Assembly (NCBI GenBank): GCA_019322475.1
Contig: JAHWIN010000011.1
Coordinates: 495-64,494 of the forward strand
Source: Candidatus Woesearchaeota archaeon
GTDB lineage: Archaea; Nanobdellota; Nanobdellia; Woesearchaeales; JACPBV01
Length of the DNA stretch: 64,000 nucleotides
Reading direction: 5' to 3'
A program made the translations under genes and the position numbers. Below the pieces are notes generated by a model that was given only the letters and a program-made list of their open reading frames with translations, had not been told where the DNA came from and made no database searches. Below are positions 2,336 to 33,540 of this stretch, in pieces; positions within the stretch are counted from its first letter, which is position 1; every line of letters begins with the position of its first letter.

Positions 2336-2984
2336 TCAGGACATTGTTCTTTTCCATAAGCCCTTCAAATTTCTCCCCTTCTATGACTATGCTGGGGTAC
2401 TTCTCTATCCCGTATGTATGTTTGATTATGGATATTATGGGTTCATCTGTTTGTTTTGAGTCAAATGAGAAGACGAGCAGTTTGTCCTTGAAAAGCTTCT
2501 TGAGGTATGTAAGGACATATGCCTGGTCTTCACAGTCGGGGCATTCCCCATCATCAGAATAGAAATATAATATTGTGGCTATTTCGCTGTTGCAAAGCTC
2601 TTTTGTCTTTTTTGCAAGAAGCCAGTACCTTACCTGGGCAAGGGCATATTCTCTTTTTAACAGTCCGAAGCTGCCCTTGTTTATCTTGGAGTTTTCATCG
2701 AACCTCTCCAGCCTCTCTCTCGCAGACTCAAGGCTTTTTATGTTGTCTTCAAATGTCTTAGAGACAGCATCGCAGTTCTCCTCCTGGCTTAGCTGATCGA
2801 CAAAAGCATACTGGAGCTGCAGGCTGTTATATTCCAGGTTTTGCAGCCTGTTGACGGATTCTATATACTCCACCCTTCTTCCCTCTATGACAAGCCCCAT
2901 CATCATGCCCAGAAGGAAAATGCCTATCGTGATTATCGCAGCTATGATATATTTTTCAGTGCTTACCTTCCTCATACCTACCAC
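2268..2984 (-). CDS. membrane-anchored thioredoxin/DsbA-like oxidoreductase (CPDC active site)
   Basis: One N-terminal TM helix followed by a 'GECPDCEDQAYV' thioredoxin-fold CxxC motif. The 5' end overlaps the neighbouring ORF, so the true start is probably further downstream. Confidence 0.55.
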   Translation of the reverse strand: MVGMRKVSTEKYIIAAIITIGIFLLGMMMGLVIEGRRVEYIESVNRLQNLEYNSLQLQYAFVDQLSQEENCDAVSKTFEDNIKSLESARERLERFDENSKINKGSFGLLKREYALAQVRYWLLAKKTKELCNSEIATILYFYSDDGECPDCEDQAYVLTYLKKLFKDKLLVFSFDSKQTDEPIISIIKHTYGIEKYPSIVIEGEKFEGLMEKNNVLNEICRYYNYDENCKEYGSSAED

Positions 2985-4231
2985 CTCTGCTTTTTTCCTA
3001 TTATCATTTCAGCGAGTATCCCTATCCATATCACTCCAAGAAGCACAAAATAAGCGAATAAGTAAGCTATTATTGATAATATCCCATATTTGCCTGCATT
3101 TTCCTTTGTGCTTATGTGCGATTTTGCAAATATATAGATGGACAATACAAGCATTATCACAGCAGATATTATGCTTGCAAAATTAAGGTCAAGTATGTGG
3201 AAATCTATCTTGAAGTTCCTTATGAATGTCATGATGTCAAAGCCGACATGCCTAAGCCTTATTATGCTTCCCATAGGTATCCAGAGATTATAGTAAAACA
3301 TAGCCCCTATTATTATGACTGCAAGAAACCCGCTTACTATGATGAGAGGCATCTGGATCAGCCCAAAATCTCCATAGTTTTTGTTGAGCATCATCTTTCG
3401 GTATTTTAATGCATTGTATATGGAGCCCTTATACCACCTGTTCCTTTGCTTATATAGCTGCTTAAGCGTTTTTGGGGCTATGGTCGAAACCTCCCCTTCC
3501 AGCAGCTGGATTATACGGTAATGCTTGCTTTGGAGCCTTAATGCCATCTCCAGGTCCTCAGTAAGGTTGAAGTCTTCATCAAAATAGCCCACCTTCTTCA
3601 GTATTTCTGTCCTGTATATGCTGAACGGTCCGGGTGCAACATGTATGCAGTTCAGCCTGCTCATAAGCTCCTTGTAGAACATGTTTATCAGGTACTCAAA
3701 CCACTGCATCCTTTGCAGGAAGTTTTGTGGTTTTTCTACCTTAAGGACAGGAAGCACACAGGCTATATCCTTTTTGTCAAAATAGGGGAGTATCTTCTTC
3801 AGGGAATCTTCTTTCACAAATGAATCAGCGTCAAGGCAGATGAAGAATTCCCCCTTTGCAGCCTTTAGACCGGCATTCAATGCAGCCCCTTTGCCTTTGT
3901 TTTCCTGGCTTATCAGCCGTATATCAAATCCCTTGTTCTCCTTGATTACCTTCTTGGCAACCTCCTCTGTTTTGTCAGAGCTGCCGTCATTGACAACTAT
4001 AAACTCCATCAGGTTGATTGGGTAATCAAGCTTCAATACAGAGGTTATTGTCCTCTCTATCCTGTCCTCTTCATTGTATGCAGGTATTACTATAGTTGCA
4101 AAAGGAAATCCATTGAGCTTCTTAGGTTTTTCAGCAGGGCTGTCATCCAGCAGTACCAGGAGCCAGAATACCACAAAATAGAGGGCAGCCAGGTATGCAA
4201 ACCAGATGATTATCCTTATGAAAGTTTCCAT
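2978..4231 (-). CDS. processive family-2 glycosyltransferase (cellulose/chitin/PNAG-synthase-like)
   Basis: N-terminal TM helix, then 'IVIPAYNEE', 'NDGSSD', 'LDADS', 'LTEDLE' and the 'QRNRW' (QxxRW) motif, followed by C-terminal TM helices. This is the D,D,D,QxxRW architecture of processive beta-glycosyltransferases. Confidence 0.75.
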   Translation of the reverse strand: METFIRIIIWFAYLAALYFVVFWLLVLLDDSPAEKPKKLNGFPFATIVIPAYNEEDRIERTITSVLKLDYPINLMEFIVVNDGSSDKTEEVAKKVIKENKGFDIRLISQENKGKGAALNAGLKAAKGEFFICLDADSFVKEDSLKKILPYFDKKDIACVLPVLKVEKPQNFLQRMQWFEYLINMFYKELMSRLNCIHVAPGPFSIYRTEILKKVGYFDEDFNLTEDLEMALRLQSKHYRIIQLLEGEVSTIAPKTLKQLYKQRNRWYKGSIYNALKYRKMMLNKNYGDFGLIQMPLIIVSGFLAVIIIGAMFYYNLWIPMGSIIRLRHVGFDIMTFIRNFKIDFHILDLNFASIISAVIMLVLSIYIFAKSHISTKENAGKYGILSIIAYLFAYFVLLGVIWIGILAEMIIGKKQRW

Positions 4232-4359
4232 CTTTTTCGAAAGTTATATTTTCAATATAAATGTTTTGAAAATAACCTTGCCCTGCTGCGAGATGCCCTG
4301 ATCCTGACAGGTTAGCCCTTCTATAAGTTTCTTTGCCCTACAATCGGCTACCTTTTTCC

Positions 4360-5136
4360 TTATCCCTTCCAGAAACCCCTTATTATTTCAGCCCTTTTCT
4401 TATTGAGCCCGCCCAGCCTATAGATAACTACATTTTTTATCCTGTTCCTTTTGGCGATCTCCAGGTCCCTTTTCAGCTCCTCATCTTTCAGCTGCTTTTC
4501 ATCCCCGATTATTCCTTTTCCTATAACCCCCAGCCCGATAAGATAGTTCTCTTTATACTCCTCTTGTCCTTCTCTTATCTGCCTTTCAAGATACCTTTTG
4601 ATCGCCTTGTTCTCTATCATGCTTGTATAAAGCATGCCTATCTTCTTATGATTGTATTCCCTCGGGCTGAAAGAAAGGGCAAGAAACCTGAAAATACGCC
4701 TAAAAAGCGCATTTTCCATGGGATATTCAGCAGTTATTATCCCTTTGTTATATCTCCCGGAATTTTTTATAAATTCCCTTATGATCTTCCTGTTCCTGAA
4801 AAAATTATGCAGCTCTTTTTTCCAGTTGCCTCTTTTTAATGGAAGTTCCGCATCCCAAAGCACCTTGATCCTTTCTTTGTCTTCTTTTAGCTCACCGATG
4901 ACCCTTTTAAGCGCCCCTCTTTTCGAAAAGGGGCTCATCCAGTACCCCTCTTCTTCTTTTAATGTTGGCCAGTATATGATATCTTTTACGTTCTTGTTCT
5001 TGATGATCTTCTCCCTGATGCCCTTAAACTGGCTTAAGCTTGCTGAAGCTATATACACATCTGAAGGGAAGCTTATCATCCTTAATCTTCCCAGGCTTTC
5101 TCTGGTTGGAAACTCTTCAAAAAATCCGATCCTCAT
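4360..5136 (-). CDS. hypothetical protein in the glycosyltransferase cluster (possible polysaccharide-modifying enzyme)
   Basis: 258-aa ORF with no recognised motif, sitting in the same orientation between two GT2 genes. Confidence 0.35.
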   Translation of the reverse strand: MRIGFFEEFPTRESLGRLRMISFPSDVYIASASLSQFKGIREKIIKNKNVKDIIYWPTLKEEEGYWMSPFSKRGALKRVIGELKEDKERIKVLWDAELPLKRGNWKKELHNFFRNRKIIREFIKNSGRYNKGIITAEYPMENALFRRIFRFLALSFSPREYNHKKIGMLYTSMIENKAIKRYLERQIREGQEEYKENYLIGLGVIGKGIIGDEKQLKDEELKRDLEIAKRNRIKNVVIYRLGGLNKKRAEIIRGFWKG

Positions 5137-5831
5137 TTTTTATAGTCAAACCTGTACCTGAAGACATCCTTCCTGATTGGCCCGATAATAGCTTGGTATG
5201 CTGTTGCCATGACTATTGTAGAACCAACCTTTATCCTTCCGAATGTATCGAACCTTCTTACAGAGGTGTCTATCTTCCTGTTAAGTATCCCGAATCTTCC
5301 ATGTTTAAGGCACCTCTTTATGTAGTCATTTTCTTCAAACATAGTCAATTCCTCATCAAATCCTTTGATCCTATTGTGTATGCTTTTTTTGACCAAGATG
5401 CAGCACCCCCCAAGTACAGGGGAGACCTTCTCAGAGACCTTGACGAAGCCGTTAAAGATCTTAAAATAGGCCTTGTCTTCTAATCTGTTGCTCATGGGCC
5501 TAAGAAGGCAGCCTGCAGCCCCAAGTTTCTTTTTCTTGAACTCGTCAAGGATGCCTTTGATAAACCCCTCTTCAAGGCAGCAGTCAGCATCGAGAAAAAG
5601 AAGAAGGCTCCCCTTTGCTGATTTAGCCCCCCTGTTCCTCCCTATCCCGGGTTTATTCCCTCCTTTAACTATCCTGCATCTGAACCTTCTTGCTATATCC
5701 CTTGTCTTGTCCTTTGAATTGTTATCAGCTATTATTATCTCATAATCCTTTATGTTCTGCATTTTTATCGAATCTAGGAGTTTGCCGAGGTATTTTCCCT
5801 CATTATATGTTGGAATTATGATGCTAAGCAT
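5133..5831 (-). CDS. family-2 glycosyltransferase (dolichyl-phosphate sugar synthase-like)
   Basis: 'LSIIIPTYNEGKYL', 'EIIIADNNSKDKT' and 'LDADC' are the GT2 DxD signature motifs. The protein is soluble and 232 aa long. Confidence 0.7.
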   Translation of the reverse strand: MLSIIIPTYNEGKYLGKLLDSIKMQNIKDYEIIIADNNSKDKTRDIARRFRCRIVKGGNKPGIGRNRGAKSAKGSLLLFLDADCCLEEGFIKGILDEFKKKKLGAAGCLLRPMSNRLEDKAYFKIFNGFVKVSEKVSPVLGGCCILVKKSIHNRIKGFDEELTMFEENDYIKRCLKHGRFGILNRKIDTSVRRFDTFGRIKVGSTIVMATAYQAIIGPIRKDVFRYRFDYKK

Positions 5832-6751: not shown

Positions 6752-8317
6752 GTGACTGGTATGAAGCTCAACGAAAAGATAAGGGATTTTAACAAGAAGA
6801 AAAATGGCTTGCCTATAGATAAAGAACTGGTAAAAAAACAGCATGAAAAAGGCAAGCTGACAGCGCAGGAGCGATTAAGCCTCCTTCTTGATGAAGGCAC
6901 ATTCACAGAGATAGGCGAATTTATAGAGTTGAAAAGCCATGATTTCAATCTTCAGGAAAAGAAAAAGGCTGGAGATGGAGTTATCGCAGGCTACGGCCAG
7001 GTTAACGGCAGGCCTGTTTGCGTATATGCGCAGGATTTTACCTTCATGGGCGGGTCTATGGGAGAGATGCACAATAAGAAGATAGCCCAGGTTATGGATT
7101 TTGCTTTAAAGACGGGCTGCCCGATCATAGGGCTTTTTGATTCTGGCGGAGCAAGGATCCAGGAAGGCATCAATGGCCTTGATGGGGGAGGCCACATCTT
7201 TAAGATGAATTCACGCTGTAGCGGCGTAATACCCCAGATAAGCGCAATAATGGGGCCTTGCGCAGGCATCGCAGTATATTCTCCGGCATTGACTGATTTC
7301 GTATTTATGGTTGACAAGATAAGCTACATGTTTATAACCGGACCTGATGTTGTCAGGAGCGTAACAGGAGAAGATGTAGATTTCATGGGCCTTGGAGGCG
7401 CAGATGTCCATAGCACCAAGAGCGGGGTTTCTCATTTCTCTGCCTCAAGCGAGAAAGACTGCATACTGCAGATAAAAAAGCTGCTCAGTTACCTTCCTCA
7501 GAATAACCTTGAGGATACGCCCCCCATAGATATGGGTGACACCCCTGACAGGATAAACAGCAGGCTGAACGAGATAATACCTGCCGATCCGAAAAAAAGT
7601 TACGATGTTAGGGATGTTATAACAGAGATAGTGGATAAGAATTCCTTCTTCGAGGTCCATTCAGGATACGCGCAGAACTGCGTTGTAGGCTTTGCACGCC
7701 TCAACTCCAATGTTGTAGGCATAGTTGCAAACCAGCCAAAGGTCCTTGCAGGCTGCCTTGACGTAAACAGCTCTCAGAAGATATCCCGCTTTGTAAGGTT
7801 CTCTGACTCTTTCAACATACCTTTGATAAACCTTATTGATGTAACAGGATATCTGCCTGGAACAGACCAGGAATATAGTGGTGTGATAAAGCACGGCGCT
7901 AAGATCCTCTATGCTTATTCAGAAGCTACAGTCCCAAAGATAAGCCTTGTTATGAGAAAGGCGTATGGCGGAGCCTATATAGCCTTGGTAAGCAAGGATA
8001 TGGCATATGATTACACCCTTGCATACCCTATGGCAGAGATAGCGGTCATGGGAGCCGAGCAGGCAGTCAATATCCTTAACAAGAGGGACAAGGCCTCTAA
8101 GCAGTGGGATTCCATAAAAAAAGAAAAGACAGCTGAATTCTCTGAAAAATTCTTAAACCCCTATGTGGCTGCAAGCCAGGGAAAGATAGACAAGATAATA
8201 GACCCTAAGGAGACCAGGATTGCACTGATAAGCGCATTGGAGATGCTTATGCCCAAAAGGGAGGCCACAAAAGGCAAAAAGGCCATGCCAAGAAAACACG
8301 GCAATATGCCTCTGTAA
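6752..8317 (+). CDS. acyl-CoA (propionyl/methylmalonyl-CoA) carboxylase, carboxyltransferase subunit
   Basis: 521 aa with the PccB/AccD5-like duplicated crotonase-fold carboxyltransferase domains. Stretches such as 'GGARIQEG' and 'GPCAGIAVYSPALTDF' are characteristic. Confidence 0.85.
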   Translation: MTGMKLNEKIRDFNKKKNGLPIDKELVKKQHEKGKLTAQERLSLLLDEGTFTEIGEFIELKSHDFNLQEKKKAGDGVIAGYGQVNGRPVCVYAQDFTFMGGSMGEMHNKKIAQVMDFALKTGCPIIGLFDSGGARIQEGINGLDGGGHIFKMNSRCSGVIPQISAIMGPCAGIAVYSPALTDFVFMVDKISYMFITGPDVVRSVTGEDVDFMGLGGADVHSTKSGVSHFSASSEKDCILQIKKLLSYLPQNNLEDTPPIDMGDTPDRINSRLNEIIPADPKKSYDVRDVITEIVDKNSFFEVHSGYAQNCVVGFARLNSNVVGIVANQPKVLAGCLDVNSSQKISRFVRFSDSFNIPLINLIDVTGYLPGTDQEYSGVIKHGAKILYAYSEATVPKISLVMRKAYGGAYIALVSKDMAYDYTLAYPMAEIAVMGAEQAVNILNKRDKASKQWDSIKKEKTAEFSEKFLNPYVAASQGKIDKIIDPKETRIALISALEMLMPKREATKGKKAMPRKHGNMPL

Positions 8318-8318
8318 A

Positions 8319-8708
8319 ATGCAGGATTTAAAGGTCAAGCTGGACGGAAAAGATTACGACGTTAAGGTAGAGGAGCTAGACTCTGGAAGGTTGAAGGTAT
8401 ATCTTGATGGGGAATCTTTTGAGGTAGAGACAAGGTCAGACATAGAAAAGCAGCTTTTTGAAGAGGTCAAAAGTTCAGATGATCCAAAAGGAAAAAAGAT
8501 AGTGGCTGCCCCCCTTCCCGGAGCGGTATTTTCTGTATCTGTAAAAGAAGGGGATAAGGTGTCTAAGGGGCAGAAATTGGTAAGCCTTATGGCAATGAAG
8601 ATGGAGAATGAGGTTTGTGCTCCTGTCAAAGGGATTATAAAAGAGATTAAGGTAAAAAAAGGAGATTCTGTCGATAAAGGGGACATCCTCATGCTCTACA
8701 AGGATTGA
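8319..8708 (+). CDS. biotin carboxyl carrier protein (biotin/lipoyl attachment domain)
   Basis: 'LMAMKMENE' matches the A-M-K-M biotinylation motif. The gene is translationally coupled to the upstream carboxyltransferase gene. Confidence 0.8.
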   Translation: MQDLKVKLDGKDYDVKVEELDSGRLKVYLDGESFEVETRSDIEKQLFEEVKSSDDPKGKKIVAAPLPGAVFSVSVKEGDKVSKGQKLVSLMAMKMENEVCAPVKGIIKEIKVKKGDSVDKGDILMLYKD

Positions 8709-8713
8709 CTCTC

Positions 8714-8755
8714 TGATTGCTCAAGCTGGGCACATACCCCTCAGCTTGCTGCGGT
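8714..8755 (+). repeat. 42-nt conserved post-stop element, copy 1 (hairpin plus GCTGCGGT)
   Basis: tgattgctcaagctgg-N11-cccctcagcttgctgcggt starts at the BCCP stop codon. CAAGCTG / CAGCTTG form a 7-bp stem, and a T-run follows. Confidence 0.4.
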
Positions 8756-8909
8756 GGGGATTTTTTATTTTAAGAAGCAGTTAGTTCATTCCACCTGAAT
8801 TCCCTGAGTTTGATCCCCCTTTTTCTTAAGTGCATAGAGATCTCTTCATTCAGTTCAAGCAGGCCCTTAGACTCAGTTAGATAGGCCATCTCCTCTATCT
8901 CTTTTATGT

Positions 8910-9149
8910 TCATTTTTCCTTCTCCCCTGAGGTCTTTCCGAATAATATGCCTGCTAGGACATTAAGGGCCCATGCCTGGAAAACATTGATCTGCAGCTGG
9001 CTGAAATTCTTGAAAACATAGTTCCACAGCCACATTACCGGAAAAGCAAGGATCAATCCCACCAATGCAGACAAAATGATGATAAGAAACATAGTGTATC
9101 CCAACTCAAATATCCTTTTTAATAATGGTGTATTGTCCAAAAAACCCAT
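8910..9149 (-). CDS. small hypothetical membrane protein
   Basis: 79 aa with two hydrophobic helices and no conserved motif. Confidence 0.3.
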   Translation of the reverse strand: MGFLDNTPLLKRIFELGYTMFLIIILSALVGLILAFPVMWLWNYVFKNFSQLQINVFQAWALNVLAGILFGKTSGEKEK

Positions 9150-9275
9150 CTTGATTAATAAGTAATTCGTGCTAATTTATAAATCTTATTGAAAATAAAA
9201 AATAACTGGCACCAGATAGGTTTCTATTGGGCATATCAAACAAAAAAAAATAAATACTCCTCCAATATACTTGAT

Positions 9276-9701
9276 ATGAAGATGGCATCAAATAAGACAG
9301 AGCACAGGGTAAGGTACTCAGACACGGATCATTTTGGTGTTGTTTATTATGCCCGCTATCTTGACTGGTTCGAAGCAGGGAGGACAGAGATTCTAAGGTC
9401 AAAAGGCATCTCTTACGCAGATCTGGAAAAGAAAGGTCTTTTTGCTCCAGTTATAGAGATAAAGGTTAATTACAATAAGCCGGCAAGATACGACGATATT
9501 ATCGAGCTTGAGACCTCTGTTGAAAACATAGGGAATTCAAGCATCAGGTTCAGTTATAAGGTTTTCAGGAACCATCCGGAGTCAGATGGCGAGCAGGCCG
9601 AAAAAGAGCTTTTAGCTGAAGCATATACAGTCAATGTTTTCATCAATAAGGGCATGGAGCCTGTAAGGATACCGGATTACGTTAGGGATATCCTGAAATG
9701 A
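9276..9701 (+). CDS. acyl-CoA thioesterase, hotdog fold (YbgC/4HBT family)
   Basis: Starting at the internal ATG at 9276 gives 'HRVRYSDTDHFGVVYYARYLDWFEAGRTE', the 4HBT/YbgC catalytic signature. The ORF as tracked begins at 9189. Confidence 0.65.
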   Translation: MKMASNKTEHRVRYSDTDHFGVVYYARYLDWFEAGRTEILRSKGISYADLEKKGLFAPVIEIKVNYNKPARYDDIIELETSVENIGNSSIRFSYKVFRNHPESDGEQAEKELLAEAYTVNVFINKGMEPVRIPDYVRDILK

Positions 9702-9774
9702 GCCTGATCATCTGACGATTCTTAAAAAGATAGCAGCCATTAAGAAAAGCCGAAAATATCTGTTTCCCTGCTTT

Positions 9775-10449
9775 TCATTTGGCTATAACATCACCCTCGA
9801 TGATCCTTGTCTTTTTTCCTTTCTTGTCCTTTATTATAAGAAAACAGTCTTTATCAACATCAGTTGCAGTCCCTCTATACGTTTTTCCTATGCTTCTGAC
9901 AACAACCTCAGAGCCTAAGAACGATCTTTTCTTCCACTCATTGATTATCTTATTGTATTTTTTATTTTTAAGTTTCTCAATGTAAGCCTCAAGATGCCTT
10001 AAAACCGCATTTATCAGCCGTTTATTGTCTACATCTTTTCCTATTATCTGGCTTAATGAAACCGCCTTATCCTTCAGGCTCTTGGGAATCTTGTTGTTTG
10101 TGTTTATCCCTATCCCCACTATCGCTTTATCACCTGCCTGTGTCAATATCCCGCATACCTTCTTTTTATTGTAGGTCAGGTCATTAGGCCACTTGATAAC
10201 GGTTTCTACCCTATAAGTATCTTTTATCGCATTGTATACGGACAACGCAGCAGCAAAAGTAAGATAACTCATTTCAAAAGGCTCAAGAACGATAGACATA
10301 TAGGCCCCTCCTCTTAAGGAGCTCCACCTCCTCTTAAATCTTCCCTTCCCTTTTGTCTGGGAGTCTGCTATTATCACCGAATTTACCTTAAACTCCCTGG
10401 CTTTTTCACTTGTAGATCGCAGTTCCTTAAAGTGGTAGGCCTTAAGCAT
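9775..10449 (-). CDS. birA: biotin--[acetyl-CoA-carboxylase] ligase (BirA, catalytic core without the HTH domain)
   Basis: 'GKGRFKRRWSS' matches the biotin-protein-ligase GRGRxGRxW motif. Its 3' end overlaps the biotin carboxylase gene. Confidence 0.75.
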   Translation of the reverse strand: MLKAYHFKELRSTSEKAREFKVNSVIIADSQTKGKGRFKRRWSSLRGGAYMSIVLEPFEMSYLTFAAALSVYNAIKDTYRVETVIKWPNDLTYNKKKVCGILTQAGDKAIVGIGINTNNKIPKSLKDKAVSLSQIIGKDVDNKRLINAVLRHLEAYIEKLKNKKYNKIINEWKKRSFLGSEVVVRSIGKTYRGTATDVDKDCFLIIKDKKGKKTRIIEGDVIAK

Positions 10450-12325
10450 TTTCTCCTGAATTTATCTGCTCCTGCCTCCCGGCCATAGCCCACGCCAAAG
10501 GCATACTCCCTTTCTTTCTCTTTTCCATATGCTGGGAAACAGCTGTGCTTATTATCAGCACCTTCTCTTTTTTGGTAAGGCTGTTTTTCCTTGGCTTCTC
10601 TTTTACAAGCTTCCCTATTATGCCATGCTTTTCTATGAAGCTTGTGGTTATATTGCCTTTGACAAAGCCCTTGCAGTTAAGCACAGCTTTATGGAAAGGG
10701 GCAGTCGTCTCTACGCCTTCTATCATGAACTCATCCAGTGCCCTCTTCATCCTGGCTATGGCTTCATTCCTGTTGGCGCCCTTGCACATTAGTTTAGCTA
10801 TCAAAGAATCATAATGGGGGCTTACAACATGCCCTGTATGGCATGAGCTGCATACCCTTATCCCTGGCCCTCCTGGAGGAAGATAGTTTGTTATTGTGCC
10901 TGTCTGCGGACAAAAATCCTTTGATGGGCACTCTGCATTTATCCTGCACTCTATAGCAGACCCATCTATTTTTATATCCTCCTGCCTGTATGCCAGTTCT
11001 GCGCCTGCAGCAATCTTTATCTGCTCCTTAAGAAGGTCAACACCGGTTATCATCTCAGTTATGCCGTGCTCTACCTGTATCCTTGTGTTCATCTCCATGA
11101 AATAAAAGTTATTCTTGTCGTCAAGAAGGAATTCAACAGTTCCAGCTCCCTCATATTTTACAGATTTCACTATCTGGGTTGCAGCCTTCCCTATGGTCTC
11201 CCTTAATTTTTTGTTTAGGGCAGGGGAAGGTGCCTCTTCTATCAGCTTTTGGTGCCTTCTCTGTATGCTGCAGTCCCTCTCCCCAAGGTGGATAACATTG
11301 CCATGGCTGTCTCCGAGTATCTGGAGTTCTATATGCCTTGGCTCTTCCATGTACTTTTCCATGTACAGCGAATTATCCCCGAAAGAGGCTTCAGCTTCTG
11401 ATCGTGCGCTCTTGAAAGCAGCAGCTATATCTTTTTCATTCCTGACAACCCTCATCCCTTTTCCACCCCCTCCCGATACAGCCTTGATTATAAGCGGATA
11501 ACCTATAATCTTGGCTGATTTTAATGCATCAGCCTCGTCTTTTAATGACCCTCTTCCCATGATAACAGGGATGCCTAGGCTTTTTATGGTCTCTTTTGCC
11601 CTGTCCTTATTGCCCATAAGCACTATTGACTTTGAGGAAGGCCCTACAAACTTGATCCTATTCTGCTCGCATATCCTTGCGAAATCGCTGTTTTCTGAAA
11701 GGAACCCGTATCCAGGATGTATTGCATCTGCATTTGCCTTTTTGGCTATCCTTATTATCCTTTTATAGTCCAGGTAAGAATTAGAGCCCTCCCCCACGCA
11801 ATATTTTTCATCTGCAAACCTTACTGCCAGGGTTTTCTTGTCCTGTTTTGAATATACCACAACTGTTTTTATGCCTAGTTCCCTGCATGCCCTCAGTATC
11901 CTTAATGCTATCTCGCCCCTGTTTGCTATAAGCACCTTCTTGAACAGCTTTTCCCTGCTTACCTTGGTATACTCCTTTTCCTCTTCTACATTGGTCAATC
12001 CTTTAGCGAGCATATCCAGGAAGGATTTGGATGATCTGTCTTTGATTATCTTGTTGATCTGGCTTTCAGTAAGGTTAGGGAGCTTTTTTGCAAAGTTCTT
12101 TGCTATAAGGTCCCCAAACCCGTTTATATCAGGATTATGCATCAGTTTTTCATCTTTCTCTAGGGTAACTAGATGTGATTTTATTATCTTCTCTATCTCA
12201 TTGCATATATAAGGGACCCTGTCGTGGGTTTTCTTAGCTACCCTTTTCAGAAAGCCATAGCTCTTTGCCATCGGCAGAAGCAGCTTGTTTACAGTATCTG
12301 CCACCCTTCTCTCTGTGCTTCCCAT
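10442..12325 (-). CDS. biotin carboxylase subunit (AccC/PycA-like, ATP-grasp)
   Basis: 'KVLIANRGEIALRILRACRELGI', 'GGGGKGMRVV', 'EMNTRIQVEH' and 'SPHYDSLIAKL' mark the biotin carboxylase domains. The tracked ORF adds a ~130-aa N-terminal stretch, so the true start may be an internal Met. Confidence 0.85.
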   Translation of the reverse strand: MGSTERRVADTVNKLLLPMAKSYGFLKRVAKKTHDRVPYICNEIEKIIKSHLVTLEKDEKLMHNPDINGFGDLIAKNFAKKLPNLTESQINKIIKDRSSKSFLDMLAKGLTNVEEEKEYTKVSREKLFKKVLIANRGEIALRILRACRELGIKTVVVYSKQDKKTLAVRFADEKYCVGEGSNSYLDYKRIIRIAKKANADAIHPGYGFLSENSDFARICEQNRIKFVGPSSKSIVLMGNKDRAKETIKSLGIPVIMGRGSLKDEADALKSAKIIGYPLIIKAVSGGGGKGMRVVRNEKDIAAAFKSARSEAEASFGDNSLYMEKYMEEPRHIELQILGDSHGNVIHLGERDCSIQRRHQKLIEEAPSPALNKKLRETIGKAATQIVKSVKYEGAGTVEFLLDDKNNFYFMEMNTRIQVEHGITEMITGVDLLKEQIKIAAGAELAYRQEDIKIDGSAIECRINAECPSKDFCPQTGTITNYLPPGGPGIRVCSSCHTGHVVSPHYDSLIAKLMCKGANRNEAIARMKRALDEFMIEGVETTAPFHKAVLNCKGFVKGNITTSFIEKHGIIGKLVKEKPRKNSLTKKEKVLIISTAVSQHMEKRKKGSMPLAWAMAGRQEQINSGENA

Positions 12326-12558
12326 ATTAGGATATAGTTGGTTTTTTCTTTAAAAATGTTGGTTTTTTCTAAGGGCTCTTATCAAACAGCAGGGGGCCTC
12401 AACTTGCCATTTATCCAAAATGTAGCTTATTTGCCCCATACCCCCTCCAAAAACCGCCACATTTAAATAGCCATAATAATTCTTGACCCCCAGTATACAG
12501 AAAATTCGAATTCTGTACGAGTTGGAAGTATAACTAAACTAAAAGGTGAATATATAAG

Positions 12559-12741
12559 ATGGGATTTGAAAGCAGTTTTGGAGAAAGAGAGATGCACAAG
12601 GCAACATGTGCAGATTGTGGTAATGAATGTGAGGTTCCTTTCAAGCCAACAGAAGGCAGGCCTGTATATTGCAGGGAATGCTACCAGAAGCACAGGAAGC
12701 CAAGGTCAGGCGGAAGAGGCGGATTCAAGCCTAGGTTTTGA
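12559..12741 (+). CDS. small zinc-ribbon protein with a C-terminal RGG/basic tail
   Basis: CADCG...CRECY is a four-cysteine ribbon followed by 'RSGGRGGFKPRF'. It lies upstream of the acdh-etfBA genes on the same strand. Confidence 0.45.
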   Translation: MGFESSFGEREMHKATCADCGNECEVPFKPTEGRPVYCRECYQKHRKPRSGGRGGFKPRF

Positions 12742-12836
12742 TCATTCTGTTTCTTTTTTATATTTTTTAAAATTTTTTAAGAGCAATCTTTATAAATCAC
12801 TATGGATTTCTTGTTTTTCAAGGGGGATGTTTTTCG

Positions 12837-13991
12837 ATGGATTTTACATTTACGCCAGAGCAGTCAGCTATAAAGAAGATGATCACAGAGTTTGTAGACT
12901 CTGAAGTCAAGCCTTATGCAGATGATGCAGATAAGGAAGAGATATTCCCTGAAGAGCAGATAGGCAAGCTGGCTAAGCTCGGAATCATGGGCATGTCTAT
13001 ACCTAAGAAGTATGGCGGGACCGAGCTGGATAATGTTTCTCAGACTATAATAATGGAAGAGGTCAGCAGGGGCTGCAGCGCAACAGCAGTCACTATGGGC
13101 GCACATTCAAGTCTTGCATGCCATCCTATAGTCAATTTTGGCACTGAAGAACAGAAAAAAAGGTTTCTGCCAAAACTCGCTTCTGGGGAATATTTAGGTG
13201 CATTTGCCCTTACAGAGCCCAATGCAGGAAGCGACGCAGTCAATGTCCAGACTACCGCAGTTCGTGAAAAAGATAATTACATAATAAACGGAAATAAGAT
13301 CTTCATTACAAACGGCGGTAAAGCAGACCTCATAAACATAGTGGCTACGACCGACAGGGGCAAAAAGCACCATGGCCTGAGCATATTTGCTGTAGAGGCA
13401 AAAAAGGCTAAGGGATTCAGCCTCGGCAAAAAAGAGGATAAGCTTGGCCTGAGGGGCTCCAATACCCAGGAGCTCGTCTTTGAGGATATGGAGATCCCAA
13501 AGGAAAACCTTATTGGGGGTATTGAAGGTGAGGGGTTTAAGATAGCTATGAGCGTTTTCAACTCAGGGAGGATAGGCATAGGCGTCCAGGGAGTTGGCAT
13601 TGCCCAGGCTGCTTTTGACGAAGCCTTGAGGTATGTCCAGGAGAGGGAGCAGTTCGGCAGGAAGCTCCATAAGTTCCAGGCTTTGCAGTTCATGCTTTCA
13701 GATATGGCAGTTAGGATAGATGCTGCAAGGCTTTTGTGCTATAGGGCAGCGCATACTAAAGATAAGGGAAAAAGGTATGTAAAAGATGCTGCTATGGCAA
13801 AGGTGTATGGCTCAGAGACAGCCATGGATGTGGCAAGAAAAGCCCTACAGATACACGGCGGCTACGGCTATATCAAGGATTACCCTCTGGAAAGGTTTTA
13901 CAGGGACGCCAAGATAACAGAGATCTATGAGGGCACGTCTGAAGTGCAGAGGCTCGTTATAGCAGCAGAGCTTTTAGGCAGGGGCTTTTGA
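12837..13991 (+). CDS. acyl-CoA dehydrogenase (short/medium-chain type)
   Basis: Full-length ACAD fold. The C-terminal '[13 protein letters not shown]' contains the catalytic-Glu signature. Confidence 0.85.
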
Positions 13992-14061
13992 ATAAACGAA
14001 AAGAGATAACATCTGGGCTATACCAGAACTATAAGATTAGAGGATCAGGCACACGATCAAA

Positions 14062-14856
14062 ATGAAAATAATAGTATGTATCAAGCAGGTTCCTGACACT
14101 AATAAGGTAAAGATAAACCCTAAGACAGGAACATTGGTCAGGGAAGGGGTCAAGGCGATAATGAACCCCGAGGATAAGCATGCTTTGATAGAGGCAGTAA
14201 GGATAAAGAAGGATCATGGCGCTAAGGTGGCTGCCCTTTCTATGGGCCCCCCTCAGGCAGAAGATGTATTGAGGGAAGCATTGGCCCTGGGTGCAGACGA
14301 AGCCATATTATTGTGCGATAGGGCATTTGCAGGCTCAGACACATGGGCAACAGCAAATGCCATAGGTGCAGCTGTAAGGTCTATCGGGGATTGTAGCTTA
14401 TTGTTGTTTGGAAGGCAGGCTATAGACGGAGACACAGCCCAGGTTGGCCCCCAGGTAGCAGAGTTTCTTAACATGCCTCAGATAACATATGCCCGGAAGA
14501 TAGAGATTATCGGTGATAAGGTGAGGGTTGAAAGGCAGATGGAAGACGGCTACGAGATAATAGAGTCAAAGATGCCCTGCCTTATAACCTGCATGGAAGA
14601 GCTAAACAAGATGGAATATCCTTCTTTGGGCGGCATAAGGGAAGCATATATGGAAAAAAAGGTAAATGTTCTTGGGATGAAAGACATAGGTGCGGACAGC
14701 TCAACTGTAGGGCTGCTAAGCTCTCCCACCTCTGTAAAAAGATCATTCACCCCTCCGCCAAAAGGCAGCGGCCAGATGATAAAAGGCTCTGCCAAAGAGG
14801 CTGCAGATAAGATAGTTTCTTTATTGAAAGAGAAAGAGATGGTAGGTGCATTCTGA
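14062..14856 (+). CDS. etfB: electron transfer flavoprotein, beta subunit
   Basis: 'MKIIVCIKQVPD' is the EtfB N-terminal signature, and the gene is ATGA-coupled to etfA. Confidence 0.8.
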   Translation: MKIIVCIKQVPDTNKVKINPKTGTLVREGVKAIMNPEDKHALIEAVRIKKDHGAKVAALSMGPPQAEDVLREALALGADEAILLCDRAFAGSDTWATANAIGAAVRSIGDCSLLLFGRQAIDGDTAQVGPQVAEFLNMPQITYARKIEIIGDKVRVERQMEDGYEIIESKMPCLITCMEELNKMEYPSLGGIREAYMEKKVNVLGMKDIGADSSTVGLLSSPTSVKRSFTPPPKGSGQMIKGSAKEAADKIVSLLKEKEMVGAF

Positions 14857-16028
14857 TGGTAAAGGCAAGGCTGTCTATGAACTGCCCTGAAACCCAGCTT
14901 AACCTGGGAGGCATAGTCTTGATAAAGGGAAATGATTTTGAGGACATCCCTGATCTGCCTGAGGTTCAGCAGGCCATAGCTAATGGCTATTTAGAGGTCC
15001 TTGCTGAAAAGAAGAAAGAGGGACCCAAGGAAAAAAAAGAAGGCAGCGAGATCCTGGTATTTGCAGAGCAAAGGAACGGCAGGATAGCAAGAGTAGTCTT
15101 TGAGCTTTTGGGAAAAGCAGGGGAATTGGCAGATAAGTTAGGGGTAAATACAGCAGCCATACTTTTGGCAGATAAGGATGATGGCTTAAGCAAAGAGATC
15201 ATAAGTTACGGAGCAGATAAGGTTTATCTTGCTCGATCACCTTTATTAAAAGACTACCAGACAGGCTTATATGCAAAATCAATATCAAAACATATACAGG
15301 ATACAAAGCCCCAGATAGTCCTTTATGGAGCGACACACATAGGAAGGGATTTGGCCCCCAGGATAGCCCAAAGGCTCGGCACAGGATTGACAGCAGACTG
15401 TACAGATCTGAGCATCACTGATGAGGGTTTGTTGTTGCAGACAAGGCCCGCATTTGGGGGAAACCTTATGGCTCAGATAATATGCAAAAAGCACAGGCCC
15501 CAGATGTCCACAGTAAGGCCGGGAGTCATGAAGATAAAGGAAAAGGATGAAAGCAGAAAAGGGGAGGTGGTAGCTATAACTCCAGATATCTCTGAAAAAG
15601 ACAGGCTCACAACTCTTGTAAAGGTGATAAAAGAGGCAAAAAAGAAAGTAAACCTTGAGGAAGCTGATATTATAGTTGCTGGAGGCAGGGGCCTTGGAAA
15701 AAAGGAAAATTTTAAGCTTATAACTGATCTTGCAGCCATTCTTAATGCAGAGGTTGGAGCTTCAAGAGCTGCTGTAGATTCAGGCTGGATATCCAAAGAC
15801 CACCAGGTTGGGCAGACCGGAAAGACAGTACGGCCTAAGCTCTATATTGCAGTAGGCATCTCAGGAGCTATCCAGCACAAGGCTGGGATGCAGGACTCCA
15901 GTTTGATAATAGCAATAAACAAGGATTCAGAAGCACCTATATTCGAGGTGGCAGATTACGGGATAGTTGGGGATCTGTTCCAGGTAGTTCCAGAGGTCAT
16001 AAGCAGGCTGAAGCAGGAAAAAGTGTAA
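14856..16028 (+). CDS. etfA: electron transfer flavoprotein, alpha subunit (with a ~65-aa N-terminal extension)
   Basis: 'ILVFAEQRNG' and the FAD-binding 'GISGAIQHKAGM' segment are EtfA hallmarks. The start codon overlaps the etfB stop. Confidence 0.8.
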   Translation: MVKARLSMNCPETQLNLGGIVLIKGNDFEDIPDLPEVQQAIANGYLEVLAEKKKEGPKEKKEGSEILVFAEQRNGRIARVVFELLGKAGELADKLGVNTAAILLADKDDGLSKEIISYGADKVYLARSPLLKDYQTGLYAKSISKHIQDTKPQIVLYGATHIGRDLAPRIAQRLGTGLTADCTDLSITDEGLLLQTRPAFGGNLMAQIICKKHRPQMSTVRPGVMKIKEKDESRKGEVVAITPDISEKDRLTTLVKVIKEAKKKVNLEEADIIVAGGRGLGKKENFKLITDLAAILNAEVGASRAAVDSGWISKDHQVGQTGKTVRPKLYIAVGISGAIQHKAGMQDSSLIIAINKDSEAPIFEVADYGIVGDLFQVVPEVISRLKQEKV

Positions 16029-16125: not shown

Positions 16126-16893
16126 GTGCGGCATACAGAGTGCCACCGTACTGCTATAATCTCTGGATGTTATCCTGCCTATATGCTTAAAAGCCAAATA
16201 ACCATAAGTTTTATAATGAAAATAAGCTTTTCTAACATTATGATTCATCCTATACAGAGGCTTATAGTCCCCCCTTTATTGAAATTGGTGTGGGTAAAGG
16301 AGATAAAAGGCATAGAGAACATTCCAAGGGATGGGCTTTTTGTGGTTACGCCTAATCATCAGAGCTTTTTCGATGACTGGCTTGTCCCAAGCATAATCAT
16401 GCCTTATCTAGGCAAAGAGCTCCATATGTATGTAAACAGGAACTATTTTAAGAACAGGCTCTTTAGGATGTACTGTAACCACCATAAGTGTATCCCTGTT
16501 GAGGTTCATGAAAGCAGGGATAAAAAAGAGCTTAATGAAGCAGCGTTCCAGAAAGCCCTGTACTACTTAAGAAAAAAAGAGCCGATATGCATATATCCTG
16601 AAGGCCACAGGAGCTTTGATGGAGAGCTGCAAAAGGCAAAAGTAGGTGCTGCAAGGCTGGCGATAGCTGCTAAGGTTCCTGTGCTGCCTGTAGGAATATC
16701 AGGGTCAAGAGAGGTTTTGCCTAAAGACAAGTCATTCCCCTCCCTTAAAAGAAAGATCAGCATAATCATAGGAAAGCCGATACAATTAAATAACTATTAT
16801 GGCCACGAGGATGATAGAATGGCTTTAAAGGAAGCAACAGCCTTGATCATGAAAGAGATAGCAGGATTGATAGGCAAGGAGTATAATTATTAA
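16126..16893 (+). CDS. PlsC-family lysophospholipid/1-acyl-sn-glycerol-3-phosphate acyltransferase
   Basis: HX4D acyltransferase motif 'NHQSFFDDW' and 'YPEGHRS' block. The true start is probably the internal Met near 'MKISFSN'. Confidence 0.65.
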   Translation: MRHTECHRTAIISGCYPAYMLKSQITISFIMKISFSNIMIHPIQRLIVPPLLKLVWVKEIKGIENIPRDGLFVVTPNHQSFFDDWLVPSIIMPYLGKELHMYVNRNYFKNRLFRMYCNHHKCIPVEVHESRDKKELNEAAFQKALYYLRKKEPICIYPEGHRSFDGELQKAKVGAARLAIAAKVPVLPVGISGSREVLPKDKSFPSLKRKISIIIGKPIQLNNYYGHEDDRMALKEATALIMKEIAGLIGKEYNY

Positions 16894-16894
16894 G

Positions 16895-17527
16895 ATGGAC
16901 TACCCTATATGGGGGCGTATAATCCCCCCAGTCATTGGATTATGGATAAAAAAGATAAATGGGCTAGAGAACATACCAAAAACAGGAGGCCTTGTAGTAT
17001 CTGCTAATCATTCAAGCTACCTTGACCATCTGATGATATCTTCCATAGTCGTTAAGTATTCAGGAAGGAAGATCCATTACCTTGCAAAGAAAGAGCACTT
17101 CGAAAAATTTTTCCAGAGGCTTTGGCATAAGAATGTCGGAGCAATCCCGATAGATCGCCAGTCAGGAGGCAAAGAGGCATTAAATACCGCAGTTAAATAT
17201 TTAAATGATGGAAAGATAATAGGGGTATATCCTGAAGGGACAAGGACGCTTACAGGAAAGCTTCAAAGGGCAAGGACCGGGGCTGCCAGGCTTGCCTTAG
17301 CAGCTAAGGTTCCTGTTTTGCCTATAGGCCTTATAGGTACATTTGATATAATGCCCAAAGGCCAGCACTACCCTAAGATGAAAAGGGCAGTAGTAAATAT
17401 CGGAAAGCCCCTTTATTTTAAGGAGTATTATGGAAAAGAAGAGGATAAGGCGATAATAAGGTTGGTGACCACTAAGATAATGAGGGAGATTGCCTCATTA
17501 TGCGGGCAAAGATATGAGTTTGATTAA
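16895..17527 (+). CDS. PlsC-family 1-acyl-sn-glycerol-3-phosphate acyltransferase (second paralogue)
   Basis: 'NHSSYLDHL' (HX4D), 'YPEGTRT' and 'PVLPIG' acyltransferase blocks. Confidence 0.7.
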   Translation: MDYPIWGRIIPPVIGLWIKKINGLENIPKTGGLVVSANHSSYLDHLMISSIVVKYSGRKIHYLAKKEHFEKFFQRLWHKNVGAIPIDRQSGGKEALNTAVKYLNDGKIIGVYPEGTRTLTGKLQRARTGAARLALAAKVPVLPIGLIGTFDIMPKGQHYPKMKRAVVNIGKPLYFKEYYGKEEDKAIIRLVTTKIMREIASLCGQRYEFD

Positions 17528-17528
17528 G

Positions 17529-18503
17529 ATGAAAATAGCGGTTATAGGTGCAGGAGGATGGGGAACGACCCTCGCCAATCTTTTGGCTGAAAAGAACAAG
17601 GATGTTACCCTGTGGGCTCTTGAAAAAGAGGTAGTTGACGAGATAAGCTCTAAAAGGGAAAATTCACGGTTTCTACCGGGAATAAAGCTTCTTGGAAACA
17701 TCACCCCAACAAATGATCTGGAAGATGCCGTTACTGATAAGGATTTTATCATAACTGCAATACCCTCTTCATTCATTAGGGGGATGGCAAAAGAGATGTC
17801 CCGGTTTATCAGCCCGGATACTATTGTAATATCTGTGACAAAAGGCCTCGAAGACATGACATTCAAGAGGATGTCAGAGATCCTGGAAGACGAATTAAAA
17901 AACAGGGTAATCGCATTGTCCGGCCCCAATCACGCAGAGGAGGTCAGCAGGAAGATACCTACAGCGACAGTCATAGCATCCAAACATTCAGGCATCCTTC
18001 CTAAGGCCAAGGCAGTCCTGGAAACCCCTTATTTTAAGGTTTACCCTCATGACGATGTCGTAGGGATAGAGATATGCGGCGCAGTCAAGAATATAACTGC
18101 TATAGCCATAGGCGTTTGTGATGCCCTTAAATTAGGCGACAATGCAAAAGCGTCTATAATAACATTGGGCCTTACCGAGATGAGCCGGGTAGGAAGATTT
18201 TTTGGGGCAAAAAGGGCAACATTCTACGGCTTAGCCGGAGTAGGCGACCTTATAGCTACATGCACCTCAAAGCATTCCCGGAATAGGTTTGTAGGGGAAA
18301 GGATTGCAGAGGGAAAATCATTTGAAGATATAAGGGAAGAGATGCACGGAATGGTTGCAGAAGGAATAAGGGCAGCAAAGTCTGTTTATGATCTGGCAAA
18401 AAAAGAGGACATAGACCTCCCTTTGACAACCCAGGTCTATAAGGTCCTCTATGAGAAAAAAGACCTGAAAAAAGCCATAAACGACCTTATTACCCTCATC
18501 TGA
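17529..18503 (+). CDS. gpsA: NAD(P)H-dependent glycerol-3-phosphate dehydrogenase (GpsA; makes the bacterial-type sn-G3P backbone)
   Basis: 'MKIAVIGAGGWGTTLANLL' is the GpsA Rossmann signature and the protein is GpsA-like throughout. Start placed at ATG 17529; the tracked ORF begins at 17490. Confidence 0.8.
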   Translation: MKIAVIGAGGWGTTLANLLAEKNKDVTLWALEKEVVDEISSKRENSRFLPGIKLLGNITPTNDLEDAVTDKDFIITAIPSSFIRGMAKEMSRFISPDTIVISVTKGLEDMTFKRMSEILEDELKNRVIALSGPNHAEEVSRKIPTATVIASKHSGILPKAKAVLETPYFKVYPHDDVVGIEICGAVKNITAIAIGVCDALKLGDNAKASIITLGLTEMSRVGRFFGAKRATFYGLAGVGDLIATCTSKHSRNRFVGERIAEGKSFEDIREEMHGMVAEGIRAAKSVYDLAKKEDIDLPLTTQVYKVLYEKKDLKKAINDLITLI

Positions 18504-24694: not shown

Positions 24695-24836
24695 GATAAG
24701 GTATCTAAATCCATTTAAATAATTTTATGTTTTGGAATATAATGGTTCTAAAATCAAAGATAGTGTGATTAAGCTGAACTACATATTTACTATCTCCTCA
24801 GCTATTCTTCATCATATGCACATAACTTTTAGCGTT

Positions 24837-28246: not shown

Positions 28247-28247
28247 A

Positions 28248-29045: not shown

Positions 29046-29073
29046 TGTTTTTTAACACCAATCCATGTTTCTA

Positions 29074-29418: not shown

Positions 29419-29440
29419 GTTCTATCTTTAATCTTGAACT

Positions 29441-30928: not shown

Positions 30929-31105
30929 GTCTTGTTTCTATCTCAATCTTAATCTATTTCCACCCAAAAAACCGGTTTACTATGCCTATTATCTGCTCCC
31001 TCAATCCTCCATAAAAAAATAGTATAAAGATGGCAAATAAAAATAATAGCGCCCACCATATCACTTTTTCCCATGGAAGCGCCAAAGCGCCTTTTTTATC
31101 TTTCA

Positions 31106-33214: not shown

Positions 33215-33220
33215 ATTAAG

Positions 33221-33538: not shown

Positions 33539-33540
33539 TA

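Follow-up and report, generated by a model that had tools for sequence, protein, structure and literature searches.

The 64,000-nucleotide stretch of Candidatus Woesearchaeota (DPANN) contig JAHWIN010000011.1 analyzed here (the window) contains an acyl-CoA metabolism island at positions 6752-16028, in which genes for a biotin-dependent acyl-CoA carboxylase lie beside genes for an acyl-CoA dehydrogenase (ACAD) and the electron-transfer flavoprotein (Etf) subunits EtfB and EtfA. Relatives have a larger cluster, in which five further genes occupy the middle, and the window holds a reduced version of it. We read the island as the in-place part of a clade-specific, CoA-based and apparently carrier-protein-free route for fatty acid synthesis and phosphatidate assembly in Woesearchaeota, and give this interpretation, drawn from gene content and order, a probability of about one half. 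On this reading, the best supported, the window holds four parts of the route, namely malonyl-CoA supply, the enoyl-reductase step, the release step and the assembly steps.

Window proteins were examined with an open reading frame (ORF) listing and with Pfam and NCBIfam family scans, NCBIfam hits being judged against the model cutoffs. An earlier sequence-only reading had placed nine named genes side by side directly upstream of a GpsA/PlsC module. All nine are present where that reading put them, every named family was recovered by the Pfam and NCBIfam models, and two PlsC genes and gpsA follow at 16183-18503. The genes are contiguous but do not share a strand, since those for biotin-protein ligase (BirA) and biotin carboxylase (BC) are on the minus strand, divergent from the plus-strand ACAD operon. 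The island also holds two small minus-strand genes beyond the nine (8910-9149 and 8770-8913). The features are as follows.

6752-8317, plus strand: CT, acyl-CoA carboxylase carboxyltransferase of the PccB/AccD type (PF01039; alternative ATG start at 6761)
8319-8708, plus strand: BCCP, biotin carboxyl carrier protein, 129 aa (PF00364, E = 2.6e-19; AMKM biotinylation motif)
8770-8913, minus strand: 47 aa ORF, conserved in some relatives, which overlaps the 79 aa gene at its end
8910-9149, minus strand: 79 aa protein with hydrophobic stretches, function unknown, conserved in relatives
9279-9701, plus strand, ORF open from 9189: YbgC/FadM-type hotdog acyl-CoA thioesterase (TIGR00051; Pfam 4HBT and 4HBT_2)
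9775-10449, minus strand: BirA, biotin-protein ligase (TIGR00121)
10442-12325, minus strand: BC, whole gene, 627 aa (accC cutoffs passed)
10442-11944, minus strand: BC catalytic body and archaeal-type C-terminal tail, residues 128-627 (Pfam, NF006367, TIGR00514)
11945-12325, minus strand: BC N-terminal extension, residues 1-127, orphan and helical (conservation; AlphaFold2 (AF2) model)
12357-12448, no strand: deletion junction, the site of the relatives' FabZ-like, KT1, DUF362, KT2 and FabG-like genes (4.9 kb; blastn, tblastn)
12449-12558, plus strand: promoter-like leader of the zinc-ribbon/ACAD operon, with a TTTAAATA box and GGTGA before the ATG (four-genome alignment)
12559-12741, plus strand: CxxC-x17-CxxC zinc-ribbon protein with an RGG-like tail (TIGR04272, E = 7.9e-22; PF23477)
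12837-13991, plus strand: ACAD, Bcd-type acyl-CoA dehydrogenase (all ACAD domains by Pfam)
14062-14856, plus strand: EtfB, small subunit, bifurcating type (closest solved chains; REGV and SPTSV motifs)
14856-16028, plus strand: EtfA, whole gene, 390 aa (ETF domain from residue 66)
14856-15050, plus strand: EtfA N-terminal extension, residues 1-65 (homolog conservation; AF2 model)
15051-16028, plus strand: EtfA core, large subunit (PF01012, PF00766)
16183-16893, plus strand: PlsC-family acyltransferase 1 (PF01553; NHQSFFD, an HX4D motif)
16895-17527, plus strand: PlsC-family acyltransferase 2 (TIGR00530, E = 4.4e-27; NHSSYLD, an HX4D motif)
17514-18503, plus strand: GpsA, bacterial-type NAD(P)-dependent sn-glycerol-3-phosphate dehydrogenase (PF07479, PF01210, PF20618)

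The BCCP gene starts one base past the CT stop, the BirA gene overlaps the BC stop by 8 nt, and the EtfA start codon overlaps the EtfB stop. The GpsA start was called identically in an independent assembly. All remaining island genes are full-length and intact with their motifs conserved.

Seven related loci were compared with the window (L002/L003, L004/L007, L006, L008, L009, L090 and L091), their BC proteins being 55-76% identical to that of the window. In 7/7 loci BC divergently adjoins a five-gene block encoding a FabZ-like dehydratase, a thiolase-like protein (KT1), a DUF362 protein, a second thiolase-like protein (KT2) and a FabG-like reductase, and this block precedes ACAD wherever relatives have an ACAD. 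The relatives' FabZ-like and FabG-like proteins score 130.9 and 300.9, against NCBIfam cutoffs of 113 for FabZ and 297.75 for FabG. In the three relatives that reach far enough (L006, L007 and L008), ACAD-EtfB-EtfA is followed by PlsC-PlsC-GpsA with gaps of -1 to ~160 nt. L090 has PlsC-PlsC-GpsA after the block and no ACAD/Etf. BirA is present in all loci, the thioesterase in 6/7, and BioY lies beside BCCP in L091. Genes for pyruvate/2-oxoacid:ferredoxin oxidoreductase occur within the block in L002 and L004/L007. It had been supposed that small-genome archaea normally lack such genes. This does not hold for the present clade, since homolog listings returned >100 distinct clusters whose source names, where given, are Woesearchaeota or Nanoarchaeota. 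No genes of the 3-hydroxypropionate/4-hydroxybutyrate pathway were found in any locus.

The five-gene block has been removed from the window locus. By blastn, window positions 12205-12356 correspond to L006 2352-2503 (the 5' end of BC) and window positions 12449-12704 to L006 7391-7648 (upstream of and including the zinc-ribbon gene). The 4.9 kb between them in L006 are cleanly missing from the window and correspond exactly to the five-gene block. The BC/zinc-ribbon/ACAD junction is identical in an independent assembly. The sequence-only reading had taken the island as one unit for making or remodelling fatty acyl chains; it looks like part of such a unit, but the condensing, ketoreductase and dehydratase genes are missing from the window. 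A KT1 ortholog, P0263 (MBW2989863.1), has a GenBank accession that lies 927 numbers off, the window's BC being MBW2988932.1 and its EtfA MBW2988936.1. P0263 is 61, 64, 78, 77 and 76% identical to the relatives' copies, and the corresponding values for window BC are 59, 59, 76, 76 and 75%. The 29,115 bp contig carrying P0263 is missing from the listed homologs of BC and likewise from those of EtfA, which would be unexpected under the canonical arrangement. The accession proximity, the parallel divergence and the contig without a listed BC or EtfA suggest that the block was relocated rather than lost, and a position elsewhere in the same genome is probable.

The thiolase-like proteins of the block would carry out the condensation. 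Across the KT family the nucleophilic cysteine is present in 114/120 members and the histidine of the GHP motif in 120/120. HDAF is found in 110/120 where 6ESQ, a bona fide archaeal thiolase, has HDCF. In SCP2-type thiolases the HDCF cysteine is the acid/base that deprotonates acetyl-CoA. The loss of this base cysteine, together with the invariable carboxylase neighbor, fits a putative decarboxylative condensation with malonyl-CoA. The DUF362 protein has a zinc-ribbon N-terminus (CxxC...CxxC). A role for it as a DUF35-like scaffold was considered and found no support from Pfam or from a PDB sequence search. Genes for acyl carrier protein (ACP), FabD and KAS-family condensing enzymes are absent from the island, and none was recognized in the Pfam lists of the related loci.

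The carboxylase would supply the malonyl-CoA. In CT, PF01039 spans residues 29-507 (E = 8.5e-180), and the best solved relatives are 1VRG, 1X0U, 1XNW and 7W5U, with 1VRG and 1X0U at E = 1e-174 to 1e-177. The motif RKAYGGAYIALVSK has Ile, not the Asp of strict propionyl-CoA carboxylases, at the position of Streptomyces coelicolor PccB D422 and AccB I420, as do 5 relatives. Ile at AccB I420 belongs to a promiscuous, acetyl-CoA-accepting enzyme and Asp at PccB D422 is typical of the strict enzymes; in the literature this residue is not the sole specificity determinant. The isoleucine favors promiscuous or acetyl-CoA use as the predicted activity. BCCP carries the biotinyl-lysine motif in the sequence MAMKME. 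BirA scores 157 bits against the TIGR00121 cutoff of 83.1, and a helix-turn-helix (HTH) or repressor domain is absent from it. In BC, the domains Biotin_carb_N, CPSase_L_D2 and Biotin_carb_C cover residues 128-565, and the protein exceeds the cutoffs of NF006367 (676 vs 597) and TIGR00514 (658.5 vs 626.5). The thioesterase reaches 95.8 bits against the TIGR00051 cutoff of 68.7. Assignment of CT to a Na+-translocating methylmalonyl-/glutaconyl-CoA decarboxylase was rejected. Its TIGR01117 (mmdA) score of 734.3 bits is below the cutoff of 998.8, and BC and the ligase are present, contrary to a decarboxylase that needs no biotin carboxylase. No integral-membrane beta (pump) subunit is found in the island ORF map, and none was recognized in the Pfam lists of the related loci.

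Like the multi-subunit carboxylases known from Actinobacteria, Thermotoga and Sulfolobus (such as S. coelicolor AccB/PccB, 1VRG and 1X0U), the window enzyme has a distinct hexamer-type CT together with BCCP and BC, and its CT has Ile at the place of AccB I420. In the window, BC and BCCP are separate proteins, BC bears an orphan helical 127 aa domain, and a conserved hydrophobic protein of 79 aa is encoded beside BCCP. This small gene occupies the same place in all six relatives that cover the region, and its product is 96% identical to the L008 copy, whereas the L008 carboxylase is just 76% identical. Of the codon changes between the two gene copies, 41 are synonymous and 3 nonsynonymous, a sign of very strong purifying selection. 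The high identity and this ratio indicate that the 79 aa protein is real and strongly constrained. It contains the motifs GLILAFPVxWLWNxVF and INVFQAWALNVLxGILFG. In L091 its gene lies immediately before BioY. The 47 aa ORF is 75-77% identical in L008 and L009 and weakly matched in L004. Neither product has a Pfam or NCBIfam family match.

ACAD, EtfB and EtfA closely resemble clostridial Bcd-EtfAB and CarCDE (5OL2, 4KPU/4L1F, 6FAH), with which they share the acad-etfB-etfA gene order. These complexes are the closest solved relatives, with E-values of 1e-131 for ACAD, 1e-82 to 1e-88 for EtfB and 1e-104 to 1e-108 for EtfA. The best match to ACAD is the Clostridioides difficile Bcd of Bcd-EtfAB (5OL2_C, E = 1.3e-131), and its best NCBIfam match, below the model cutoff, is the acryloyl-CoA reductase AcrC. 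EtfB is closest to CarD (6FAH_B, 1.6e-88) and 5OL2_B, with non-bifurcating Etfs at 1e-27 to 1e-32. EtfA is closest to CarE (6FAH_A, 1.7e-108) and 5OL2_A. The bifurcating entries 6FAH, 5OL2, 4KPU, 7KOE and 7QH2 all outrank the non-bifurcating 1EFV, 1EFP and 1O94. In group-2 Etfs the motifs around the bifurcating FAD are RxGV and SPTxV in the small subunit and RPxFGG in the large subunit (PMC10734219). The window has REGV and SPTSV in EtfB and RPAFGG in EtfA, the last invariant across the alignment. Nearness to proven bifurcating complexes and the group-2 motifs make a Bcd-EtfAB-type enoyl-CoA reductase the best reading of ACAD/EtfBA. These proteins had been assigned to acyl-CoA dehydrogenation; by their sequences they are of the clostridial bifurcating type, and they most likely act as an enoyl-CoA reductase instead. 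They differ from the clostridial complexes in their company, which is a carboxylase and FabG/FabZ homologs and not crt/hbd/thl, and in having an archaeal host.

BC and EtfA both carry N-terminal extensions, described earlier as about 130 and 65 aa long. Both are genuine and artefacts of ORF calling are ruled out. In BC the extension of ~127 aa (>100 residues before the catalytic start LIANRGEI) is present in 109/120 of the best homologs. The extended homologs are 620-640 aa long, a length kept down to 55% identity, and in the extension they have invariant and near-invariant positions and no interrupting stops. A profile of it run against 1.84 billion representative proteins retrieved 27 proteins, nearly all from the same family or fragments, and it has zero Pfam or NCBIfam matches. 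The AF2 model is all-helical at low confidence (pLDDT 63.5, pTM 0.27) and a Foldseek search with it gave nothing below E = 1. The BC extension is an orphan domain.

The 65 aa EtfA extension is conserved in about 100 homologs. It comprises a small beta-rich domain, modeled by AF2 with a pLDDT of about 85 for residues 1-50, followed by a Lys/Glu linker, and has one Cys only. Foldseek gave no significant match to the model, the best being YqbF (E = 0.23). CarE and LctC have a [4Fe-4S] ferredoxin domain where the window EtfA has its beta-rich domain, and in some related EtfAs this N-terminal position is taken by a 2x[4Fe-4S] ferredoxin domain. Descent from such a domain by degeneration was considered and rejected, since hhalign to ferredoxin-type N-termini gave 13% probability and aligned the linker only. 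An intact CarE/LctC-type 2x[4Fe-4S] CxxCxxCxxxC domain was likewise rejected, given the single Cys, the beta-rich model and the lack of a ferredoxin among the Foldseek matches. An EtfA with the same extension and 63% identity (P0213) is labelled Candidatus Nomurabacteria, a bacterium of the candidate phyla radiation (CPR). This label reflects either a mis-binned DPANN contig or a transfer between two ultra-small groups.

GenBank records cut into both extensions. BC (MBW2988932.1) begins there at residue 127 (501 aa), with the conserved N-terminal sequence removed, and EtfA (MBW2988936.1) begins at residue 8 (383 aa), also losing conserved sequence. Other NCBI-named BC homologs among the matches listed are similarly short (501-531 aa). 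The GenBank pipeline trims two conserved N-terminal domains in these proteins.

The leader of the zinc-ribbon/ACAD operon has a mean column identity of 78% across four genomes (the window and three relatives) and includes the archaeal TATA-like TTTAAATA box and the GGTGA ahead of the ATG. An imperfect inverted repeat, TACAGAA...TTCTGTA, occurs in this leader in the window only and could be an operator. The zinc-ribbon gene had been counted as an island member. It is present in the window and in L006, L008 and L009, but was not called or detected in the more distant L004/L007, L090 and L091, and its product is probably not a pathway enzyme.

In the proposed pathway BirA would biotinylate BCCP, and BC with its orphan N-terminal domain would act with CT to convert acetyl-CoA to malonyl-CoA. 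The KT enzymes, thiolase folds without the acid/base cysteine, would extend acyl-CoA, probably decarboxylatively with malonyl-CoA, and the FabG-like reductase and FabZ-like dehydratase would process the beta-carbon. The Bcd-type ACAD with bifurcating EtfBA would then reduce the enoyl-CoA with NADH and reduce ferredoxin alongside. Two fates would be open to the resulting acyl-CoA, hydrolysis by the YbgC-type thioesterase or, through the two PlsC paralogs, transfer to the sn-glycerol-3-phosphate that GpsA supplies. The condensation and beta-carbon genes were excised from the window locus and are probably now on another contig. The gene identities, motifs, conserved extensions, synteny and deletion are direct observations. 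From these we deduce in which direction flux runs, which substrates and chain lengths are involved, that condensation is decarboxylative, that the block was relocated, and any function that the extensions may have. A first-step acyltransferase, either PlsB or PlsX/PlsY, was found neither in the island nor in the related loci, and one of the PlsC paralogs might perform the first acylation. Elsewhere in the window (62842-63423, plus strand) lies a gene for a predicted 193 aa membrane protein with a weak PF01148 match (CdsA/CarS/dolichol kinase-like; 24.6 bits, cutoff 24), which might serve a later lipid step or be a dolichol kinase.

Several points weigh against this pathway. As a whole it is read from genomes. 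The five block proteins gave zero tblastn matches against the whole 64 kb window, and the case for their relocation consists of accession proximity and similarity. L091 and L009 have no PlsC/GpsA downstream. Collinearity extends beyond the island to RadB upstream and rpS2/LigT/TRAM downstream. Because these unrelated neighbors are collinear too, synteny and adjacency to PlsC/GpsA overstate functional linkage; the earlier proposal of one lipid-acyl-chain unit is borne out insofar as the carboxylase, ACAD/Etf and PlsC/GpsA look unitary, but the collinear neighborhood makes that linkage seem stronger than it is. Carrier-protein genes could lie elsewhere in the genome. Bcd-type enzymes are as a rule specific for short chains, so that the pathway might yield C4-C8 acids instead of chains of membrane length. 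HDAF also occurs in 7YVY, a solved 'acetyl-CoA acetyltransferase', and the Sulfolobus ketothiolase did not use malonyl-CoA (bioRxiv 10.1101/2024.07.05.601840). For the Woesearchaeota EtfAB of their own study, Huang et al. regarded bifurcation as improbable (PMC8421398), whereas both the FAD domain and the group-2 motifs are found in the window EtfAB.

The main alternative function for the same enzymes would be fermentative chain elongation by reverse beta-oxidation, which we consider rather unlikely. Acetyl-CoA would be built up to butyryl- or hexanoyl-CoA by the thiolase-like protein, reductase, dehydratase and Bcd-EtfAB, with NADH re-oxidized, reduced ferredoxin passed to a hydrogenase or Rnf, and the acid freed by the thioesterase. 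The carboxylase would just help drive the condensation and PlsC/GpsA would be mere neighbors. The closeness of ACAD/EtfBA to clostridial Bcd-EtfAB, the thioesterase within the cluster and the 2-oxoacid oxidoreductase genes inside the block of L002 and L004/L007 all agree with this scheme, and Woesearchaeota Bcd-EtfAB has been published as a redox-balancing system with Rnf and [FeFe] hydrogenase (PMC8421398). However, the beta-carbon enzymes are of the FabG/FabZ type and not the Hbd/crotonase type, and an ATP-consuming carboxylase with its own ligase, wasteful for a fermentation, is invariably attached. Release of the acid by a thioesterase forfeits the thioester energy, the loci contain no phosphotransacylase/kinase or CoA-transferase, and the PlsC genes follow EtfA at -1 to ~160 nt. 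An oxidative role in fatty acid beta-oxidation or branched-chain amino acid breakdown, with CT as a propionyl-CoA carboxylase, is very unlikely. ACAD and Etf are classic beta-oxidation components, CT closely matches proteins annotated as propionyl-CoA carboxylase beta subunits, and some relatives have the 2-oxoacid oxidoreductase genes. On the other hand, methylmalonyl-CoA mutase or epimerase, crotonase, a 3HCDH-family 3-hydroxyacyl-CoA dehydrogenase, acyl-CoA synthetase and Etf:quinone oxidoreductase occur in no locus. The Etf is of the bifurcating type, CT has Ile in place of the Asp conserved in propionyl-CoA-carboxylating enzymes, and the FabG/FabZ homologs point to biosynthetic stereochemistry.

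The missing block itself suggests that the condensing, ketoreductase and dehydratase genes might be truly lost, leaving a remnant that decays or serves other ends, for example by activating, saturating or trimming acyl chains that are scavenged and then esterified to glycerol-3-phosphate. The deletion removed exactly the five genes and no trace of them is left in the window, and in the literature DPANN archaea are generally host-dependent for lipids. Yet the remaining genes are all intact and full-length with conserved motifs, the carboxylase has no obvious role in pure salvage, and there is a KT1 ortholog whose accession is close by and whose divergence runs parallel to that of the window BC. 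We therefore regard such a remnant as unlikely, and retain synthesis of acyl chains and phosphatidate as the preferred function.

Near the block, the more distant relatives L090 (3180-4871, fused) and L091 (724-2450, separate) encode an S-adenosylmethionine (SAM)-methyltransferase and a FabG-like short-chain dehydrogenase/reductase (SDR), and ACAD/EtfBA is absent from both loci. These genes could make methyl-branched products or represent a different reductase solution. A role for the L090 fusion as a FabI-like stand-in for ACAD/Etf was considered, but NCBIfam places its SDR part with FabG, which leaves that reading unproven. In L009 a B12-binding radical-SAM gene follows EtfA in place of PlsC-PlsC-GpsA, and at 16713-18327 a PlsC-family acyltransferase adjoins a GT28/MurG-like glycosyltransferase beside RadB, a pair that could function in glycolipid synthesis. 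GT2 and PMT_2/GT22 glycosyltransferase genes lie near RadB in the window (902-5831), with similar genes beside a RadB-like (RecA/Rad51-family) gene in several relatives. Farther downstream (about 24800-36500, minus strand) a long run of genes encodes products whose N-termini combine a short charged segment with a hydrophobic helix behind it, a pattern resembling that of type IV pilin-like proteins of archaea (class III signal peptide).

A close parallel is the ACP-independent fatty acid synthase of Sulfolobus acidocaldarius, which uses different enzymes, in which malonyl-CoA use by the ketothiolase was disproved, and whose description does not mention DPANN (bioRxiv 10.1101/2024.07.05.601840). 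The relatives' cluster resembles it in its apparently CoA-based chemistry, in pairing condensing enzymes of the thiolase fold with an SDR ketoacyl-CoA reductase, and in having no recognized ACP. It differs in that the DUF35 scaffold was not detected in the relatives, which have a DUF362 protein instead, the dehydratase is FabZ-type rather than MaoC-type, ACAD/EtfAB stands where Sulfolobus has an NADPH-dependent medium-chain dehydrogenase/reductase (MDR) enoyl reductase, and the cluster is tightly linked to the carboxylase. In the window, none of the Sulfolobus-type components (ketothiolase/DUF35 pair, SDR, MaoC and MDR reductase) was found. Compared with the bacterial type II fatty acid synthase, the island has no ACP, FabD or KAS, and FabG and FabZ are absent from the window. 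The relatives' FabG and FabZ copies pass the cutoffs, and those of the window genome are probably elsewhere in it. With bacterial assembly of glycerol-3-phosphate acyl lipids the window shares the GpsA domains and two HX4D PlsC paralogs.

Individual pieces have been published before. Huang et al. (2021, PMC8421398) described Bcd adjacent to etfAB in four Woesearchaeota subgroup J genomes, as a bacterial acquisition of Firmicutes-like origin, and reported both GGGPS and DGGGPS missing from this subgroup. GpsA and PlsC were noted in DPANN (Coleman et al. 2019, PMC6431249). Both papers concern the same phylum and treat the genes separately, as redox balancing and phylogeny, and neither mentions the carboxylase, the FabZ/KT/FabG block, the PlsC/GpsA link or the extensions. 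A literature search that left most subscription journals outside it returned no account of the combined cluster, the carboxylase link, the Cys-deficient thiolase-like pair or the extensions, and we found no description of the whole cluster in the literature searched.

The usual description of DPANN archaea is that they cannot make lipids, and archaea as a whole are commonly said to have no membranes of fatty-acid esters. The conserved Woesearchaeota cluster brings together a supply of malonyl-CoA, all steps of an elongation cycle, a thioesterase, two glycerol-3-phosphate-type acyltransferases and GpsA, and is a testable candidate for autonomous bacterial-type lipid synthesis in a small-genome archaeon. 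Tentatively, and at somewhat less than even odds, this DPANN clade may itself make fatty-acyl glycerol-3-phosphate ester lipids of the bacterial type, by means of a hybrid synthase that dispenses with a carrier protein and combines a carboxylase bearing a clade-specific docking domain, decarboxylative thiolase folds lacking the base Cys, FabG and FabZ acting on CoA substrates, and bifurcating Bcd-EtfAB. The pairing of a bifurcating reductase with cysteine-deficient thiolase-fold condensing enzymes would be a new enzymatic solution, and through the enoyl reductase lipid synthesis would also yield reduced ferredoxin. If the window organism belongs to subgroup J and this reading is true, its clade, though archaeal, would stand with the bacteria across the 'lipid divide'. 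The cluster therefore bears on that divide, on the host dependence of these organisms and on the ways in which ACP-independent fatty acid synthesis can be built.

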